From a phage, in sequence record PZ452588.1: a DNA stretch of 64,000 nucleotides. One strand, 5' to 3'. Shown in pieces: positions 1,960 to 51,438 of the stretch; position 1 is the stretch's first letter, and the number at the start of each line of letters is the position of its first letter. Below the pieces are notes generated by a model. That model was not told where the DNA came from, ran no database searches, and worked only from the letters and a program-made list of their open reading frames with translations. The position numbers and the translations under genes are program-made.

Positions 1960-2285
1960 TTAAACCATCCTTTAATACGTTGCCACAAAGTTTTCTGTTG
2001 AGCTTTGTTAACACCAATTGAGCGAATAACTGGTTGAGATTCCTGGAATTCTTTATAATCGGCAAGGTAAATTTCGTAAGCTGCATCTGTAAAGGAACTT
2101 ATCGCTGCCATGAAATTATTGCGAATACCTACTGGAGCATCTTTACTTTCACGAATAATCATGTATTTACCAGTCTTAATCTTTACAATAGTTCCAAGAT
2201 AAGCTCCATGGTACCAAATATCCCAACCCTCTTGAGTAGGTTCTGCACAACGACGAAGTTCATTGACAATTTCTAACTTGTTCAT
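1956..2285 (-). CDS. Hypothetical protein (109 aa), motA.1 position
   Basis: ORF immediately downstream of motA. Confidence 0.55.
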
Positions 2286-2295
2286 TATTTATTCC

Positions 2296-2931
2296 TCACA
2301 GTTCAGATGCTACAGTGATTACAGCTTCAATGTTTTCTGCCGAGCGTTTAATGTCAAGATACACATTACCGTTTTTAGCGATTTTACATGACATTCCGAT
2401 ATCAGTAAATTTCTGAATATGATGTTCCATCATTTTGTATCCAAAAATTCGCATGTTTCCATTGTTGTTAATTTCAAAATTACGAATTCCGTGAGTGCGT
2501 TTTTCTAAAATAGCGAGATAGTTACTGCGATAAGTTTCAACCTTTTTAAGAACAAATCCATTTTCATCTAAAAGTTTTAACATGAGGTCTTTATCTTCTT
2601 CCATATCGGAAGTAATCTCGCGAGCTTTACGAGTTGCTCGTTTTTTCAGTAGTTCCGGAGCATTTTCTTGTGCGTATAAAGTTGCTGCATTTGAAATAAT
2701 ATCCTGAGCTTCACCAGTAATGATTAATCCATCACCAGATTTCTCCACCAGGCCTTTTTTAATCAATACCCCAATATTACTATTAACTACTGCGTTACCT
2801 AAATCTGGATGCACCTCACGAACTTCTGCAGCTGTAATGAAATCTTTCTTAGCAATGGTAATTAAAATCGCAGCAGTTTTTTCATTCAGAACATCGTTAG
2901 AAGCTTTGATGATGTAAGTTACTTTAGACAT
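2296..2931 (-). CDS. motA: Middle-transcription activator MotA (211 aa)
   Basis: 211-aa ORF MSKVTYIIKASNDVLNEKTAAILITIAKKDF... matches recalled T4 MotA in sequence and length. Confidence 0.92.
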   Translation of the reverse strand: MSKVTYIIKASNDVLNEKTAAILITIAKKDFITAAEVREVHPDLGNAVVNSNIGVLIKKGLVEKSGDGLIITGEAQDIISNAATLYAQENAPELLKKRATRKAREITSDMEEDKDLMLKLLDENGFVLKKVETYRSNYLAILEKRTHGIRNFEINNNGNMRIFGYKMMEHHIQKFTDIGMSCKIAKNGNVYLDIKRSAENIEAVITVASEL

Positions 2932-2967
2932 TTTCTAATCTCCGTAATTCTGTATCAGTAGTTGATA

Positions 2968-3005
2968 GTTGTATAGTACCACAGTATGCTTTGGTTGTAA
3001 ACCGT
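2968..3005 (-). promoter_or_regulatory. Early sigma70-type promoter upstream of motA
   Basis: Minus strand GTTTAC (-35, fwd 2997-3002) and TACTAT (-10, fwd 2973-2978), A-tract upstream, GGAG SD before motA ATG. Confidence 0.6.
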
Positions 3006-3028
3006 TTTGTGAAAAAATTTTAAAATAA

Positions 3029-3056
3029 AAAGGGAGAGCCGAGGCTCTCCCTAAAA
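3029..3056 (-). terminator. Stem-loop (GGGAGAGCC-GAG-GCTCTCCC) followed by T-run on minus strand
   Basis: Perfect 8-bp stem at 3032-3052; minus-strand readout gives hairpin then TTTTTATTTT. Confidence 0.6.
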
Positions 3057-3206
3057 TTACTGCATGACTGTGATAACTGTCATGATAACACGTTGAATTC
3101 CGAACGCAAGAAGACCTCCTGCTACGGATGGAACAACGCCTAAACCCGCCAGTAAAATGCTACCAGATACTAATGCAGCGCTTGTAATACCTATGAATGG
3201 ACTCAT
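3057..3206 (-). CDS. Small hydrophobic protein (49 aa), not in ORF track
   Basis: ATG at 3204-3206 overlaps gene 52 stop; translation MSPFIGITSAALVSGSILLAGLGVVPSVAGGLLAFGIQRVIMTVITVMQ. Confidence 0.4.
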   Translation of the reverse strand: MSPFIGITSAALVSGSILLAGLGVVPSVAGGLLAFGIQRVIMTVITVMQ

Positions 3207-6658: not shown

Positions 6659-7216
6659 TTAAATGGAAAGATACCATCCGTTGTAGTTGCTTTTTCTTAC
6701 AACCTTACGAAGGTCTTCTCTGTCACCGATGAACTTCGGAGTGTACTGGATGACACCTGGATGAATTTCTTTAGTGTTGAATATAATTATACAGTCAGCG
6801 ACTTGATGATTTAGAATGGGCCCTAGATTTATTCCAGAACCATATGGATACTCTCCGCTGCATCCTGTTGTTACCGAAATCCAACGTGAGTCAGTTTGAT
6901 GTGTCTTAACTTCTACGCGAAGCCCACAGTATTTTGGATGCGCCAATACATCCCATGCATATGTGTACGGATCATCGACATCTTCTTGACCTTTATTAAC
7001 ATACCCGCTTAACCAATCTGCTACAAAAAACTCTGCGTACACAGCGATACGACATCTTTCGATAACTTCTGCCTTATCCTGGTTCGGGTTTTGTTTTAAA
7101 GAGTATCTTGCTGTATCAGCAATTTTGACCTTCATTTCATTGGTTAAATCGCTGTTCGATAGAGTAAATGTCGGAATCTGAAATAGTCTCTGCAAACCCG
7201 GATTCGTTTTCTGCAT
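6659..7216 (-). CDS. denB: Probable endonuclease IV DenB (185 aa)
   Basis: 185-aa ORF immediately downstream of rIIB, matching T4 denB size and position; sequence not independently recalled. Confidence 0.6.
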   Translation of the reverse strand: MQKTNPGLQRLFQIPTFTLSNSDLTNEMKVKIADTARYSLKQNPNQDKAEVIERCRIAVYAEFFVADWLSGYVNKGQEDVDDPYTYAWDVLAHPKYCGLRVEVKTHQTDSRWISVTTGCSGEYPYGSGINLGPILNHQVADCIIIFNTKEIHPGVIQYTPKFIGDREDLRKVVRKSNYNGWYLSI

Positions 7217-7260
7217 TTAAACTTTCCTTTATGTCGGAATCATAATTTCTCTTAAAACAA

Positions 7261-7276
7261 AAGGGCCGAAGCCCTT
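7261..7276 (-). terminator. C(UUCG)G tetraloop hairpin (AAGGGC-CGAA-GCCCTT) with flanking T-runs
   Basis: 6-bp stem; on minus-strand RNA the loop reads UUCG and is followed by TTTTGTTTT. Confidence 0.55.
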
Positions 7277-7279
7277 ATT

Positions 7280-7474
7280 TTATTTGAATTGTGCGATTCT
7301 TTTCTCTAGACACTCAGCATAAGATTTCATTGAGATGAACTGTGAAAGCAGCAGTTCTTGCTCAACTGCACTAACCGTTAGAAACTTTGTGCTTTCTAAA
7401 AATTTGCTCAGTGCATTAATTTTGAGCATTAATTGATCGTATTCTTCTTTTACTCGTGCTTGATAACCTAACAT
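7280..7474 (-). CDS. Hypothetical protein (64 aa)
   Basis: ORF between rIIB and denB, flanked by hairpins. Confidence 0.5.
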   Translation of the reverse strand: MLGYQARVKEEYDQLMLKINALSKFLESTKFLTVSAVEQELLLSQFISMKSYAECLEKRIAQFK

Positions 7475-7506
7475 AATTTTCCTTAATATGATAAGGGCCG
7501 AAGCCC

Positions 7507-8445
7507 TTATTTAAATTGTTCAGTAACGTCTTCAACTACTTCGTATTGGCAGGTACGCATTTTAGCATCGTTGTAATCAATCGGAATTGATACTACATCA
7601 CGTGGATGTACTTTAACTTTTACAACTCGGCTGGTTGAACTGCCAAAGTGACGAATATAAGATTTAGAACACACATGCAGACCACGAGAACAAGTTTGTG
7701 TATCATCGTCATTCACACGAGTACGCGGCATTTTAACTACTTTACCAGGACTGTTATCAAAGGTGTTTGAGTGACAGTCAAAGTAGTTGTCACGAACTAC
7801 TTTCCAAGCATAGAAGTAACCATCTTCTGTAATTTCAATATCGTTTGCTACCAAGAAATCAAAGAGTCGAGATACCGCTTTCTGGCTTGGGTTTTCCAGC
7901 AGATTTTCCAAGAACGGAAAATAAAATTCAAAGTTTTCACCTTTTTCCATCGAATCAAGAATACGATCAACCAGACCAGACCGTAATTCGATATTTTGAT
8001 AGAACAAGCTTCCGCCTTCAATTCGAACATCGCCGGAAATATATTTTTCAACAGCGCGACGAACATTAATTTTTTGTGCCGCTTCTTCCAACTTATCTGC
8101 TACAAGCAGATTAAGAATTTCCTGGAAGTTTGAATGAGTATTAGGAGTTGCGTTATAAGTTACACCGTCAACAGTAATTGAAATGAATTTTTTAGATGCA
8201 TTCCAAATAATGTCAGATTTAGCAACTGGAGCAATAACTGCATCGCTATTAACTTTAATTGTAATATCACCGCTAATAGTAACTTTAGAGCGTTTAGCTT
8301 CTTCAGCATTTTTCAAAACACGACGAATTGTGTCAACCGATACACCTTGCCAATCAGCCAATTCCTGTTGGGTGTAATTACCACTTGAATACAGCTTAAC
8401 AATTTCAGCTTGTTCGTTTTTGGTCAGGCATTTAATATTGTACAT
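7507..8445 (-). CDS. rIIB: rIIB protein (312 aa)
   Basis: 312-aa ORF MYNIKCLTKNEQAEIVKLYSSGNYTQQELADWQGVSVDTIRRV... matches recalled T4 rIIB. Confidence 0.92.
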   Translation of the reverse strand: MYNIKCLTKNEQAEIVKLYSSGNYTQQELADWQGVSVDTIRRVLKNAEEAKRSKVTISGDITIKVNSDAVIAPVAKSDIIWNASKKFISITVDGVTYNATPNTHSNFQEILNLLVADKLEEAAQKINVRRAVEKYISGDVRIEGGSLFYQNIELRSGLVDRILDSMEKGENFEFYFPFLENLLENPSQKAVSRLFDFLVANDIEITEDGYFYAWKVVRDNYFDCHSNTFDNSPGKVVKMPRTRVNDDDTQTCSRGLHVCSKSYIRHFGSSTSRVVKVKVHPRDVVSIPIDYNDAKMRTCQYEVVEDVTEQFK

Positions 8446-14982: not shown

Positions 14983-15520
14983 AATTCAAAATAGCTACCA
15001 CTGCACTACGAGGTACTACGCTAAAATCGCCTGCATGAACAACGTTCAGAAGTTCAACACCATCTTCAATCCATTGGTCTGTTACCCAACCACAGACCGA
15101 AATAAATGGAGTCTTGATAGCTACCGCATGAGTTAGAAGGTCAGTAGGATCGCATTCTTGAAAGAGGATGAACTCTGCTTCAAAAACTATAGTTTTAATT
15201 ACTTCATCATTATCTAAACGGCGTACTCGAATCACGTAAGCTTTATTCTTATCATACCAGTTACTTTTTGAAAAGCTTTTAACCACAAACTCGCCTTCAC
15301 CAAAAGCATTAGTCAATGCTTTATAACCCAAATTTAGTTCAGTAGTTTTAATTTCAGTTTCCACCAATTTGTAGGTTTTGCCGATTTCAATAGCGGTAGT
15401 CATAGTAGGTTCCTTAATTTCCAGTGGTTTAACAGGGCATACATAAGTGCTTACAACATCAAAATCAATCAGTTTAGCTACCGGATTTGGTATGTATTCA
15501 GGATTATAATTAAATTTCAT
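14981..15520 (-). CDS. Hypothetical protein (179 aa) sharing a C-terminal module with MotB
   Basis: C-terminus CGWVTDQWIEDGVELLNVV aligns with MotB CGYITDQWVEDGVKLYNVV. Confidence 0.55.
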   Translation of the reverse strand: MKFNYNPEYIPNPVAKLIDFDVVSTYVCPVKPLEIKEPTMTTAIEIGKTYKLVETEIKTTELNLGYKALTNAFGEGEFVVKSFSKSNWYDKNKAYVIRVRRLDNDEVIKTIVFEAEFILFQECDPTDLLTHAVAIKTPFISVCGWVTDQWIEDGVELLNVVHAGDFSVVPRSAVVAILN

Positions 15521-15522
15521 AA

Positions 15523-16023
15523 TTATCTCATTTCAATAAAATCTACGAGTTCAGCATGCGATTTGCGGAACATTACTTGGTGACCGCCAATGATAACTTC
15601 ATCTTCAGGAACTTCGTATACAGCGAGATAAAATCCTTTAGAAGATAATTCTTCCCGCTCTTCTCGTGTGAACCATCTCATCATATCATATTCGCTAGCG
15701 AAAGCAAAATGATAAAGAGCTATAAACCATCCTGGAATATGATATTCTACTCCAACATAATCTTTCTTGAACTTAGTATTAATTACTATATTAGAGTTTT
15801 TAACTAATAGTTTATCTTCGTGCGGTAAAGGAATTCTTTTATTATTATCGCTATGATGCATAAAATTAGGTCTGTCATAACCTACGTGTAATAGCCACTC
15901 TTCGCTCCATGAATCTATTATACTCCTGTACGGCGTTATTTGAACACAAAGATTTCGACGTATTGTTATAGCATCTTCATAATCAAGAATACTAAACGAT
16001 GATTCAACACGATAAATTTTCAT
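15523..16023 (-). CDS. Hypothetical protein (about 166 aa)
   Basis: Start set at ATG after GAGGA SD (track ORF extended to 16062). Confidence 0.5.
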   Translation of the reverse strand: MKIYRVESSFSILDYEDAITIRRNLCVQITPYRSIIDSWSEEWLLHVGYDRPNFMHHSDNNKRIPLPHEDKLLVKNSNIVINTKFKKDYVGVEYHIPGWFIALYHFAFASEYDMMRWFTREEREELSSKGFYLAVYEVPEDEVIIGGHQVMFRKSHAELVDFIEMR

Positions 16024-24022: not shown

Positions 24023-24095
24023 GTTATTTTTCCTTTCAATTCATGGGTTAGTAGATTAATTATACAATAAATATATAAAGCAATAAGGAGGACAT

Positions 24096-24296
24096 ATGGT
24101 ACAAAAATTAATGGCACTTGTTAATGCCATAAAAGGTAATAAAAAACGTATAGCTTTTACTATTTCTGCTATGGTAGGAATTTTACTCTGGAACTTTATT
24201 CTATCACCTGTTGCAATTGCACATGGTATTAATATTCCAATAGTTACTCTTGATACATTTGTAGATTTAGCATTTGCTTTAGTTGGGTTGATTTAA
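24096..24296 (+). CDS. Small putative membrane protein (66 aa) on the opposite strand
   Basis: Strong SD AAGGAGG 4 nt before ATG; two hydrophobic segments; sits in the otherwise empty 56-61 interval. Confidence 0.45.
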   Translation: MVQKLMALVNAIKGNKKRIAFTISAMVGILLWNFILSPVAIAHGINIPIVTLDTFVDLAFALVGLI

Positions 24297-25321
24297 ATCT
24301 TAGCATATTTAGATAACCGCATTTTAGCCATCAACCCCTGGGCAATATTATTTTTCATATATTCCATAATTTGTTCAGGGGTTGCACCTTCCTTTCTAAT
24401 CATATCATTGACATCTTTTGATTTCCAGGGAGATTTATCCCAAAACATAATCCTTTCTCCTGCATCAACTAATTTAGTAATTCGCTTAATAGTGTCAGGG
24501 TGACGAGGTTCATTATCTAAAACCCACACTCGTCTATCTTTAAATGGAACAACTTCTAGGTCTAATTGACCACCCGTAATAGCTATACCATTTTCAATAA
24601 AAAGTGAATCTATAGGTCCTTCTAGAACATATACATCGCCATCTTTAACTCGTTCGACTCCATATATTTTTGTTGCCTCAGGATAAGCTTTAATGGTGAT
24701 ATATTTTTGAGGAGCATCTTTCTTTAATGCGCGTCCTTGAAAAGACTCAGCCTTTCCGTCAGCATTATAAATTGGAATAACAAGACGAGGCTCAGAAATT
24801 TCCTTTTTATATGTTCCCGGTGCTATGCTATTAACTAATTTAGGCCATTCGGTTGTAAACCAAAGATATTTCCATTTATCCTTTGGAATACAACGAGCTT
24901 TTACATATTTTATAATTGGATGGTCTTCCGCCAGTTTATCTAATCTAACACATGACGGAAGAGATTTAATTATTTTCTTCTCAGGTTGTTTAGGAAGTTC
25001 TTTAGGTTTTTCTACTGGACGACTTTTACCTTTTTCTTTTCTTATTTCAAAGATATACTCACGATATAAATCAGGTTCAAACTCCTTTAAATATATTCCG
25101 ATTGGTGCATGATAGTTACAGTTATAACAATGAATATTTCCTTCATTATTATCACCATAATACCATCCACGGGCTTTATTTTGGTCGGTTTTTGAATCTC
25201 CACAAACTGGGCATCTAAACCGTAATTTAAAAGTTGAACTATTATTTACTTGTGTGAATTTAGGTAAATGAGCTAATGCACGATACGCAAACTCATTATC
25301 AATCCAAGGTATTGATGACAT
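24293..25321 (-). CDS. 61: DNA primase gp61 (342 aa)
   Basis: N-terminal zinc ribbon CPVCGDSK...CYNCNYH plus TOPRIM region; 342 aa as T4 gp61. Confidence 0.92.
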   Translation of the reverse strand: MSSIPWIDNEFAYRALAHLPKFTQVNNSSTFKLRFRCPVCGDSKTDQNKARGWYYGDNNEGNIHCYNCNYHAPIGIYLKEFEPDLYREYIFEIRKEKGKSRPVEKPKELPKQPEKKIIKSLPSCVRLDKLAEDHPIIKYVKARCIPKDKWKYLWFTTEWPKLVNSIAPGTYKKEISEPRLVIPIYNADGKAESFQGRALKKDAPQKYITIKAYPEATKIYGVERVKDGDVYVLEGPIDSLFIENGIAITGGQLDLEVVPFKDRRVWVLDNEPRHPDTIKRITKLVDAGERIMFWDKSPWKSKDVNDMIRKEGATPEQIMEYMKNNIAQGLMAKMRLSKYAKI

Positions 25322-28406: not shown

Positions 28407-28751
28407 TTAAAAGAATTTAAACTTTTTCTTTGACCTTTTATTAAATGCATCTTGTAGTTGCATTGTAATACATTTTTCTACATGAGGAGCTAACTCAGCT
28501 TTTCTTTCTTGGTCAAGAACAGCAAAGTCCATTACGACTTTTCCATCAACCCAATCTAATTTTGTCACATACACAATGTGTGTAGAACCATCTTCTAGTT
28601 TAATGATAATCTCCTGGATAACATTTTCCATGGCAGATTTAATTATCTTAAGAGATTCATTAAAAAGACGTTCTTTTCTTTCTTCTTCCCCCTCCGAAGA
28701 GGGGGATTCGTCGATAATTTCTAGATCTAAATCTAAATCATCTTTATTCAT
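28407..28751 (-). CDS. 40: gp40 head vertex assembly chaperone (about 114 aa)
   Basis: ORF between 41 and uvsX; start set at ATG overlapping uvsX stop (track ORF uses upstream GTG). Confidence 0.6.
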   Translation of the reverse strand: MNKDDLDLDLEIIDESPSSEGEEERKERLFNESLKIIKSAMENVIQEIIIKLEDGSTHIVYVTKLDWVDGKVVMDFAVLDQERKAELAPHVEKCITMQLQDAFNKRSKKKFKFF

Positions 28752-29925
28752 TAAATTCTTCCATATCACTTAACTGTTCTAGGTCAGTTTCTAAATCAGC
28801 AGCTGATTTACTTTTACTTTCTGGAGATTTAAATTTTTCAACCTTTGAGTTAATCAATTCATCAACTTCAGCTTCAACAATTTCATTACTATCAATAGCA
28901 CCTAACTGATAAGCACGTTTAATAGCATCTCGGAATGGTTGATGCTTAAATAAAGGACCCCAGAATGTAGTGCAGTTAGTATCTTTTGCACGCCAAGATT
29001 TTTCTTCGCGAATCATCTCGCCAGTTTCTTCGTCAAGAAATTCACGAGCATACCAGCCATTTTTAGGTTTTACAACAAATCCTAATTCTAGAGCCATATC
29101 TAACAATCCAGAATAAGGATCGATACCACCGTCAAATTTAACATCAATAAAGAATTTACTTTTTTCTTTAACGGTACGAGATTTTTCTACATTTAGAACA
29201 AATTGATACCCCTGAAGATCAGAACCATCTTTAATCTGGCGCTTACCGATAATGAATACAGTATCAGCCGAATACATTACGCCTGTACCACCTGTCATCA
29301 CGGTTTTACTAAACATTTCAATTGTTTCAATTGTATGGTTAACCGCAACACATGGAATGTTTTTAATACTAAAATAAGGAGTAACAATACGGAATAATGA
29401 CTTCAGTGATTTAGCACGAGTCATATCTGCCACAGATTTTTCATTCAAGGCATCTTCCGTTTCTTTCTTAGAAGCCATATTACCGATTGAGTCGATGAAT
29501 ACAATAACCTTTTCACCACGCTCAATAGCTTCAAGCTGATTCACCATATCAATTTTCAGCTGTTCAACTGACTGAATCGGCGTATGAATTACTCGTTCCG
29601 GGTCAACTCCCATGGATCGCAAATAAGCTGGAGTAATACCAAATTCACTATCATAGAATAGACAAACCGCGTCAGGATATTTGTTCAAATACGCCGCAAC
29701 CATAGTCAAAGACATATTTGATTTAAAGTGTTTAGAAGGACCTGCAAAAATGGTTAAACCAGACTGCATACCGCCATCAATCGCACCGGAAATAGCGATA
29801 TTAAGCATTGGGATTTTTGTACGGATTACATCCTTTTCATTAAAGAATTTAGATGTAGTCAGTTCAGCAGTCATTTTAGAAGTGGAAGCTTTAATCAAAC
29901 GGGATTTTAAATCTGCAATAGACAT
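28744..29925 (-). CDS. uvsX: UvsX RecA-like recombinase (393 aa)
   Basis: RecA fold with Walker A GPSKHFKS; matches recalled T4 UvsX. Confidence 0.92.
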   Translation of the reverse strand: MSIADLKSRLIKASTSKMTAELTTSKFFNEKDVIRTKIPMLNIAISGAIDGGMQSGLTIFAGPSKHFKSNMSLTMVAAYLNKYPDAVCLFYDSEFGITPAYLRSMGVDPERVIHTPIQSVEQLKIDMVNQLEAIERGEKVIVFIDSIGNMASKKETEDALNEKSVADMTRAKSLKSLFRIVTPYFSIKNIPCVAVNHTIETIEMFSKTVMTGGTGVMYSADTVFIIGKRQIKDGSDLQGYQFVLNVEKSRTVKEKSKFFIDVKFDGGIDPYSGLLDMALELGFVVKPKNGWYAREFLDEETGEMIREEKSWRAKDTNCTTFWGPLFKHQPFRDAIKRAYQLGAIDSNEIVEAEVDELINSKVEKFKSPESKSKSAADLETDLEQLSDMEEFNE

Positions 29926-30002
29926 TCATTTTTTCCATAGGCATCATTATATTTTCCTCACTGGTTAAAGATAGAGTAATTATAACACAATAAATTTAGG
30001 CA

Positions 30003-30851
30003 TTAATCAACTGCTATTGGATGAATAGCATTAAACTTATGAAATGCTTCTGATTTTTCTTTACGCGAAACGCACATGCGAAGAACCTTTAATGGCTCAT
30101 CTTCTTCACCCAACGATTTTCGTTTTTCAATATTCGATGTTTTCCAACGAGCTTGCTCTGGAAACTCTCTATTGATTTGCTCAAGCGCTCTATTATGTTT
30201 AGAATTACTACGAATTGAACTGCACCCGCCAGGAGCTTGTGCTTTTCCAGATACAACCAGATATTTGAACAAGGCCAAATGCGGATAACCTTGATTAATT
30301 AAATTGAGAAATGCATACATATCTTCGCACAAATCAATTTTTCCATACCCAATTTGTTCTGTCGTAAGTTTTCCAAGGTCATACCATGTATTCGTGAATC
30401 CATATGAATTTTCACGATAATTACCCCAAGATGAAGTAATTTTAAAAATAGGTAGACGAGCATGGCCATGATAATACCCACAATCCATGGCATCCTCAAC
30501 ATATTGAATCAATTCATAGAACTGTTCATGGGTCAATTGATTGACTTTATCCACACAACGACGGTCATCTCTTTTTCGCATTGAACTCATACGAATAGTA
30601 GTATCATCGTCAATCATCCAGATTCGTTGACCTGCATACATATCAGTAATTGCTTTACGAGTACCGGCAATTCCGTTTACATCATCAGGAATAGTTATAA
30701 TTTTAGCTCTAGACCCATAAGCGTCATGATAAGCTTTTTCTTCATGTTCACGCACTACAATATGGGGTTCATAATCAGTCGGAAACATATCAAGGGCAGA
30801 AACTGCCCCGACACGCTGATAACTTGGAATTACGAATTGAATCATTTCCAC
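30003..30851 (-). CDS. Glycosyltransferase (GT-A-like, 282 aa); candidate beta-glucosyl-HMC-alpha-glucosyltransferase
   Basis: In the slot between uvsX and 42 where T4 has beta-gt, but sequence and size differ from T4 beta-gt as I recall it; DxD-like WMIDDDTT motif. Confidence 0.55.
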   Translation of the reverse strand: MEMIQFVIPSYQRVGAVSALDMFPTDYEPHIVVREHEEKAYHDAYGSRAKIITIPDDVNGIAGTRKAITDMYAGQRIWMIDDDTTIRMSSMRKRDDRRCVDKVNQLTHEQFYELIQYVEDAMDCGYYHGHARLPIFKITSSWGNYRENSYGFTNTWYDLGKLTTEQIGYGKIDLCEDMYAFLNLINQGYPHLALFKYLVVSGKAQAPGGCSSIRSNSKHNRALEQINREFPEQARWKTSNIEKRKSLGEEDEPLKVLRMCVSRKEKSEAFHKFNAIHPIAVD

Positions 30852-31582: not shown

Positions 31583-31735
31583 TTAAACCTCAATTGATAC
31601 ATTCATATTTAACTTGTAACAGTAATAAGCTCCAACCTAAAATAATAGTTGGAATCATAAGAGGAACCGTTACACTATAGTATATACTTATTATAATCAT
31701 CAAGATTAAAAGCAACACTGTTATAATTTTGCTTT

Positions 31736-31987
31736 TCATTCCTTCTCTCTGATGATAATTACCTGATTTGGCTGCGCAGACTTTTTAGTTTCACCTGCAA
31801 TTGACCAAATAAATGTAATAAACCAACCAATAATTGACCAGTTAAACAGTAAAGACGTGAAAAAGATTCCTACTGTCGATTTTGACCCACGCATCAAGGC
31901 GATAAACCATGGAAGCATGTATATAATAATAGCCAACACACCTGAAACTAAAACCATAAAAATTGAACCTGCTACTAAAGTTTCCAT
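31736..31987 (-). CDS. imm: Immunity protein Imm (83 aa, membrane)
   Basis: 83-aa ORF with two hydrophobic segments at T4 imm position. Confidence 0.75.
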   Translation of the reverse strand: METLVAGSIFMVLVSGVLAIIIYMLPWFIALMRGSKSTVGIFFTSLLFNWSIIGWFITFIWSIAGETKKSAQPNQVIIIREKE

Positions 31988-50934: not shown

Positions 50935-51255
50935 TTATAGCGTAATCCATTCTCGTACTATCTGAGTTACTACACGTTCACGGGGCTCGACTAGTTCAAC
51001 AGTCGGAACTGCATAATACCAGTCAGAATGATAAGAACCTGACCGAGATTCATTTACAGCCACATGTACATTATGTTTTGGACTAAAGTAAACACACTGA
51101 CGATATTGACATTTACCATCTTGCACCCAGTCTTCTATTTCGACAGGTTTAAGATAATCGGAAAAATCGAAATCATAGTTTTCCGAAAATGCATCATGGT
51201 CTTCAATGATTTCGCTCAGAACTGCATCAACATCTAATTTATTTTCAATAGTCAT
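50935..51255 (-). CDS. Hypothetical protein (106 aa)
   Basis: ORF. Confidence 0.5.
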   Translation of the reverse strand: MTIENKLDVDAVLSEIIEDHDAFSENYDFDFSDYLKPVEIEDWVQDGKCQYRQCVYFSPKHNVHVAVNESRSGSYHSDWYYAVPTVELVEPRERVVTQIVREWITL

Positions 51256-51438
51256 TTTTCACCAATTAATTTCGCAATTTATTAAGTTCTTCATCATCAA
51301 TCCAGGATTCTAGTCCTGATGGCAGGTCACATTCAATTTCCCAAAGAAGTTCTTCAATTTTCTGAAGACGATCTAGTTCTTCGGCTGGAATAGTAACCAT
51401 TGACGGAGCTCGTGATACATTAATATCGTAAATCATAT

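Follow-up and report, generated by a model that had tools for sequence, protein, structure and literature searches.

An open reading frame flanked by uvsX and gene 42 in phage sequence PZ452588.1, very probably coding for a T2/T6-type β-glucosyl-HMC-α-glucosyltransferase

The uvsX-gene 42 slot and its surroundings

The window analyzed here is a stretch of 64,000 nucleotides from a phage (sequence record PZ452588.1). On its minus strand, an uninterrupted open reading frame occupies 30003-30851 and codes for 282 aa from the first in-frame GTG (30851). The earlier note had described an ORF of this extent between uvsX and gene 42, with the motif WMIDDDTT; it is present, and its strand can now be added. 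Translation almost certainly starts at the third codon, an ATG, which results in a protein of 280 aa; the GTG reading adds two N-terminal codons. Because this ATG (30845) overlaps the stop codon of gene 42 and relatives are annotated from it, the coding sequence is best given as 30003-30845. A start at the ATG, with 280 aa, is annotated in all retrieved annotated relatives that have an intact gene (T2, EL, Geo, BGP, Solly, CP and JK08), and the identical 4-base overlap (ATGA) is annotated in the same phages. Such an overlap suggests translational coupling and co-transcription with gene 42. A homolog was found by tblastn in 689 phage records; as the ORF is full-length in these, it is no chance reading frame. 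The features are listed in Table 1, where the gene is labeled βα-gt for the reasons given below.

Table 1. Features of the window, with the corresponding genes in public records of T2 and T6 (for the latter, positions are those of the retrieved segments).
Feature	Position	Strand	Basis or remark
gene 56, dCTPase/dUTPase, 172 aa	23504..24022	-	tblastn with T6 gp56: 72% full-length, E = 6.5e-83
uvsX	28744..29925	-	ORF, 90.5% aa identity to T4 UvsX; downstream side of the slot
βα-gt / ggt / TAGT coding sequence, 280 aa + stop	30003..30845	-	ORF, PHROG 842, PF20691, identity to T2 and MLF4
D79-D80-D81 codons, DxD-type motif in WMIDDDTT	30603..30611	-	sequence read; family alignment
ATGA overlap (gene 42 stop / βα-gt start)	30842..30845	-	sequence context
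gene 42, dCMP hydroxymethylase, 246 aa	30842..31582	-	96.7% aa identity to T4 gp42
α-gt, DNA α-glucosyltransferase, 400 aa	41986..43188	-	99% identical to T2 α-gt, 92% to T6 α-gt
T2 βα-gt	7286-8128 (MH751506); 2283-3125 (AP018813)	-	R11H, P251S
T6 βα-gt (MH550421)	7138-7980	-	CAG to TAG at codon 10
T6 βα-gt (AP018814)	2135-2974	-	one GAT of GATGATGAT run lost

The slot has the order uvsX - βα-gt - gene 42, with all genes on the minus strand, and T2 and T6 have the same arrangement. Between the stop codon of βα-gt and the start of uvsX lie 77 bases (29926-30002). In T4, segA, which codes for a homing endonuclease, is found between uvsX and β-gt; T4 SegA has no tblastn match anywhere in the 64-kb window. 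On the other side of the slot, a 49-aa hydrophobic ORF (31590-31739, minus strand) fills the space that separates imm from gene 42. The Durham phages EL, Geo, BGP and CP have it in their annotation as "Phage protein" (150 nt); no gene is annotated at this place in T4, T2, T6 and JK08, whose records show a gap of ~153 nt.

The genes that supply the acceptor (gene 42, gene 56 and α-gt) are intact in the window. This includes the intact α-gt that had been reported in the earlier note, which is confirmed as a minus-strand ORF. The 24 kb around the slot are 96-97% identical to the Tequatrovirus genomes JK08, ECML-123-2 and G50, JK08 being the best match. The product of gene 56 has only 72% protein identity to gp56 from T6, as compared to the ~96% DNA identity of its surroundings to JK08, which shows allelic mosaicism within the pathway of 5-hydroxymethylcytosine (5hmC).

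Several other features of the window differ from related genomes. For Dam from T2, there is no tblastn match in the window at E <= 1e-5. Gene 56 is followed by gene 61 (24293-25321), and the gap between them (24023-24292) is devoid of dam, as is also the case in the T6 record; it holds only a 66-aa ORF on the plus strand (24096-24296). T2 and JK08 have dam and a hypothetical gene between genes 56 and 61 (~1.5 kb in JK08). Should the genome also be devoid of dam outside the window, no GATC 6mA would be made by the phage itself. No tRNA genes were found by ARAGORN in the window (1-64000). Compared with JK08, the window is devoid of a 237-nt ORF after imm.1 (32375/32362), a 222-nt ORF beside regA (35339/35333) and a 624-nt ORF between gene 47 and α-gt (41809/41803). 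It has DNA of its own in two regions, ~340 nt near 50935-51279 and ~450 nt near 15099-15548. These small-gene differences are the usual Tequatrovirus flux.

Assignment of the gene and its predicted fold

The gene in the slot very probably codes for the β-glucosyl-HMC-α-glucosyltransferase (βα-gt, ggt, TAGT) of the T2/T6 type. The protein matches PHROG 842 ("beta-glucosyl-HMC-alpha-glucosyltransferase") with E = 2.8e-89 (protein 2-277, profile 3-269 of 270). It is identical to the ggt product of T2 at 276 of the 280 residues (98.6%), and 277 of 280 codons match the T6 record (MH550421), the differences being two substitutions and the stop codon of that record. In both T2 (MH751506) and T6 (MH550421), ggt is annotated in the uvsX-42 slot, just as in the window. 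By tblastn, the 280-aa protein is 100% identical to the enzyme annotated in Escherichia phage MLF4. By megablast, the gene is found with at least 90% DNA identity in 475 phage records, many of which are annotated with the βα-gt name; the phages are almost all Tequatrovirus and their hosts are Escherichia, Shigella, Yersinia and Salmonella. Among the matches listed, Sf22, KMB42, CM8 and Solly have 98.0-98.7% DNA identity to the gene. The earlier note had left open two alternatives. The first, α-gt together with a T2/T6-type second transferase that makes gentiobiosyl-HMC, is supported by the close identity to T2 and the distance of only two substitutions from T6. Since hundreds of sequenced T4-like phages carry the gene in the same slot, it is an ordinary one, and its identification adds nothing new: identical or near-identical copies have already been deposited and annotated.

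There is virtually no chance that the gene is a diverged β-glucosyltransferase of the T4 type, attaching a single β-glucose to 5hmC. It does occupy the same slot as T4 β-gt, and several database records are loosely labeled "b-gt" or "putative beta-glucosyltransferase". However, when compared by BLASTP with T4 β-gt (NC_000866), the best segment has E = 0.29 over ten residues, in line with the earlier statement that the protein does not resemble T4 β-glucosyltransferase; the high identity that would contradict this statement is absent. The length is also distinct (280 versus 351 aa). Moreover, the predicted model (see below) matches GT-A-fold enzymes, whereas T4 β-gt (PDB 1JG7) has a GT-B fold (PMC13216743), and the chains of T4 α-gt and β-gt are absent among the structural matches listed for it. 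A diverged T4 β-gt was thus rejected on both sequence and fold. Likewise, the window has no additional β-gt of the T4 type: when T4 β-gt was used to query the whole 64-kb window by tblastn, the best match had E = 1.3, and no homolog was found.

The designation as "non-T4-type" in the earlier note is thus accurate, but it suggests a peculiarity that does not exist. Only 6 of 753 glucosyltransferase-encoding phages, T4 included, have the α-GT and β-GT pair of T4, while in the vast majority α-GT or β-GT is paired with a TAGT (PMC13216743). In Tequatrovirus, most phages combine α-gt with TAGT, and the T4 pair is a rare outlier.

The domain assignment is consistent with this. The Pfam domain PF20691 (TAGT, TET-associated glycosyltransferase) is matched with 41.5 bits (gathering cutoff 27.5; E = 1.8e-10), residues 5-209 being aligned to profile positions 2-205 of 205. 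A family search of a large protein collection resulted in 11 clusters, from which an alignment of ten full-length sequences, down to 32% identity, was obtained. D79, D80 and D81 are invariant in this alignment. Judged from the sequence, they presumably form the binding site of a GT-A enzyme for the divalent metal and the UDP diphosphate.

Two structure models were made with AF2. The single-sequence model was set aside (mean pLDDT 38.8). The alignment-based model has a pTM of 0.72 and a mean pLDDT of 69.9, with 85-95 across residues 1-80 and less than 50 at residues 126-150 and 204-211; because the homolog search gave 11 clusters, the underlying alignment is shallow and the model only moderate. 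In this model, the DDD motif follows strand E74-77, which fits the position of a DxD motif after the fourth β-strand. All structural matches listed for the alignment-based model were GT-A-type enzymes or related nucleotidyltransferases; those from Foldseek had weak E-values (best 1.3e-3). The model thus predicts a GT-A-like (nucleotide-diphospho-sugar transferase) fold with a conserved DDD, and the "GT-A-like DxD" of the earlier note is borne out by the Pfam match, the invariant motif and the structural matches. Searching PDB sequences with phmmer gave chance-level matches only (a PNPOx-like protein, E = 1.5-2), and no solved structure of any family member was found there, either by phmmer or by the family profile. 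An AF3 model of the TAGT from T6 has been classed as GT-A, sister to GT2 (PMC13216743). The model of the window protein agrees with this published assignment and would fit an inverting, metal-dependent mechanism; inverting, because a β-bond is formed from UDP-α-glucose.

Proposed pathway and extent of gentiobiosylation

In T2 and T6, α-GT glucosylates ~75% of 5hmC in α-linkage, and βα-GT/TAGT adds a β-1,6-linked glucose, which results in gentiobiosyl-5hmC (PMC13216743; bioRxiv 10.64898/2026.02.25.707755). In a ba-gt deletion mutant of T6, gentiobiosyl-5hmC is lost and the DNA contains only α-glucosyl-5hmC (PMC11078745; bioRxiv 10.64898/2026.02.25.707755). Gentiobiosyl-5hmC was detected by LC-MS in Tequatrovirus phages that have both α-GT and TAGT (PMC13390438). 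By analogy, the following pathway is proposed for the phage from which the window is derived, with the in vivo need for the enzyme and its chemistry resting on the literature for T6 and near-identical phages. Initially, gp56 (removal of dCTP) and gp42 (the 5-hydroxymethyl-dCMP precursor) would lead to the replacement of cytosine by 5-hydroxymethylcytosine. Using UDP-glucose, α-gt would then attach an α-linked glucose to about two-thirds to three-quarters of 5hmC. The βα-gt product, with its putative GT-A fold and DDD motif, would use UDP-glucose to add the second glucose, β-1,6-linked to the α-linked one, giving gentiobiosyl-5hmC; this step would require inversion at the anomeric carbon. Because a T4-type β-gt is absent, 5hmC out of the reach of α-gt would stay bare. 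The βα-gt allele of the window is taken to be active.

It is very improbable that the enzyme has a distinct specificity, be it another sugar donor or transfer of the first sugar directly onto 5hmC. The Pfam TAGT family is a broad one, and of 753 phages, 288 have a solitary TAGT homolog but lack both α-GT and β-GT (PMC13216743), so that specificity varies across it. However, with at least 98.6% identity to the genetically characterized T2 and T6 enzymes, there is little room for change, near-identical alleles (Solly, CP, EL, Geo, BGP) go along with gentiobiosyl-5hmC DNA and no other sugar, and the window also codes for α-gt, the source of the substrate. The second alternative of the earlier note, a different sugar transferase, thus finds no support.

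The reported gentiobiosyl fraction is 5% for T2 and 72% for T6 (PMC13390438; bioRxiv 10.64898/2026.02.25.707755; PMC11078745), even though the two enzymes differ at only 5 residues, plus the stop codon in the T6 record. The allele of the window was therefore compared with those of phages with LC-MS-measured DNA (PMC13390438) and with that of T2; NR1 (LR990704) was left out. Solly, with 2 aa differences from the window, has ~1/3 5hmC, 2/3 gentiobiosyl and background α-glucosyl, and CP, with 3 aa differences, has the same composition (PMC13390438). EL, Geo and BGP have 9 aa differences, including 7 shared substitutions that are absent from the window, and their DNA has 5hmC, α-glucosyl and gentiobiosyl in a ratio of ~1:2:2 (PMC13390438). 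T2 (5% gentiobiosyl) has 4 aa differences, including the T2-specific H11 and S251, neither of which occurs in the window. The two T2 substitutions (R11H and P251S) are found in both independent T2 records (MH751506, AP018813) and in none of the other compared alleles. R11 is invariant in the ten-sequence family alignment and is part of an IPSYxR motif after the first β-strand. R11H and P251S are thus a candidate explanation for the low gentiobiosylation of T2.

As the window allele is only 2 residues away from that of Solly and is devoid of both T2-specific substitutions, the DNA of the phage would be similar to that of T6 and Solly, rich in gentiobiosyl and with a quarter to a third of bare 5hmC; this expectation is a correlation over a handful of alleles, not a demonstrated rule, and sequence alone does not reveal how far gentiobiosylation goes. 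The same enzyme might alternatively have a T2-like low output, with ~70% α-glucosyl-5hmC and a few percent gentiobiosyl, so that the DNA would be nearer to that of T4 Δβ-gt than to that of T6. The α-gt of the window, with 99% identity to T2 but only 92% to T6, points in this direction, as does the enzyme itself, which is only 4 residues away from that of T2. We nevertheless consider a low output unlikely, given that both T2-specific substitutions, confirmed in two independent records, are missing from the window, that R11H falls on a family-invariant residue, and that the closest alleles are from Solly and CP, whose measured DNA has about two-thirds gentiobiosyl and no more than background α-glucosyl. 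H40 of the window is seen in none of the compared phages with measured DNA, which have Y or N. There is a slim chance that the window allele (H40 and a T6-like H106, combined with a T2-like α-gt) gives a glucosylation pattern unlike that of any measured phage, for example in the α-glucosyl:gentiobiosyl ratio or in sequence context. A novel pattern or an effect of R11H, if true, would leave the identity of the gene unchanged.

Two public genome records of T6 each carry a lesion in βα-gt, and the lesions are different (Table 1). Because of the TAG at codon 10, the CDS in MH550421 is annotated from Met20, with 261 aa. In AP018814, the loss of a GAT from GATGATGAT shortens the family-invariant WMIDDDTT to WMIDDTT. 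Both lesions may represent independent loss or alteration in laboratory stocks, or they may be sequencing errors. They matter since T6 serves as the reference for 72% gentiobiosylation, and elsewhere the shortened CDS may have been used as "T6 TAGT".

Expected phenotypes and comparison with known systems

The gene places the phage among those with DNA hypermodification of the T2/T6 type, not of the T4 type, and its value is confined to annotation and the prediction of phenotypes. The earlier note had predicted that the hypermodification, and with it the sensitivity to type IV restriction, would differ from T4. The first part stands, the modification being predicted as T2/T6-type, but the second has to be qualified, as α-glucosyl, β-glucosyl and gentiobiosyl DNA are all reported targets of GmrSD (PMC13216743). 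Such phages are also restricted by BrxU, a member of the GmrSD family (PMC13390438). Where a departure from T4 has been documented, it relates less to type IV restriction than to the DNA glycosylases Brig1 and Brig3/BapA. In vitro, gentiobiosyl DNA is resistant to Brig1, yet T6 is still restricted by Brig1 in vivo (PMC11078745). The BapA glucosidase is unable to strip gentiobiose, and in phages without β-gt, ~25% bare 5hmC leads to Brig3 sensitivity (T2, T6 and the BASEL Tequatroviruses) (bioRxiv 10.64898/2026.02.25.707755).

From these T2/T6 relatives, the following is expected for the phage. With a quarter to a third of its 5hmC bare, it would be sensitive to the 5hmC glycosylase Brig3 (bioRxiv 10.64898/2026.02.25.707755). 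Its mature gentiobiosyl DNA would be resistant to Brig1 and BapA in vitro (PMC11078745), but it would still be a target of GmrSD-family enzymes (PMC13216743, PMC13390438). Upon loss of α-gt, it would be devoid of the back-up that T4 has in its β-gt.

Among cellular enzymes, the inverting GT-A enzymes of the GT2 family (BcsA, TarP and the PglI-like AvpGT, PDB 9jma) can be compared, although sequence similarity is non-significant. When PDB sequences were searched with the family profile, a single sub-threshold match was obtained, to the GT2 glucosyltransferase 9jma (E = 0.24); in this weak alignment, IPSYxR corresponds to IPTYNR and DDD to DDDD (in LDDDD of 9jma). Unlike these enzymes, the window enzyme has a sugar on duplex DNA as its acceptor, and its C-terminal half is poorly modeled, without a clear counterpart.

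T4 β-gt and the window enzyme have in common the slot next to gene 42, the use of UDP-glucose and the formation of a β-glycosidic bond on phage DNA. Besides being unrelated in sequence and predicted fold, they differ in the acceptor: T4 β-gt acts on the hydroxymethyl group of 5hmC, βα-gt on the glucose of α-glucosyl-5hmC. They also differ in the layout of the slot (segA and β-gt in T4; βα-gt without segA in the window).

The T2 enzyme shares with that of the window its length, the uvsX-42 slot, the ATGA overlap with gene 42, the partner α-gt and the DDD motif. It has H11, Y40, R106 and S251, where the window enzyme has R11, H40, H106 and P251. The T6 enzyme shares the slot and the partner α-gt and has N40 and G55 instead of H40 and D55; compared with the public T6 records, the window copy has neither the premature stop nor the DDD deletion. 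Finally, Tequatrovirus isolates such as MLF4, Sf22, CM8, Solly, CP and the BASEL phages code for the same enzyme, with no substantive difference from that of the window.
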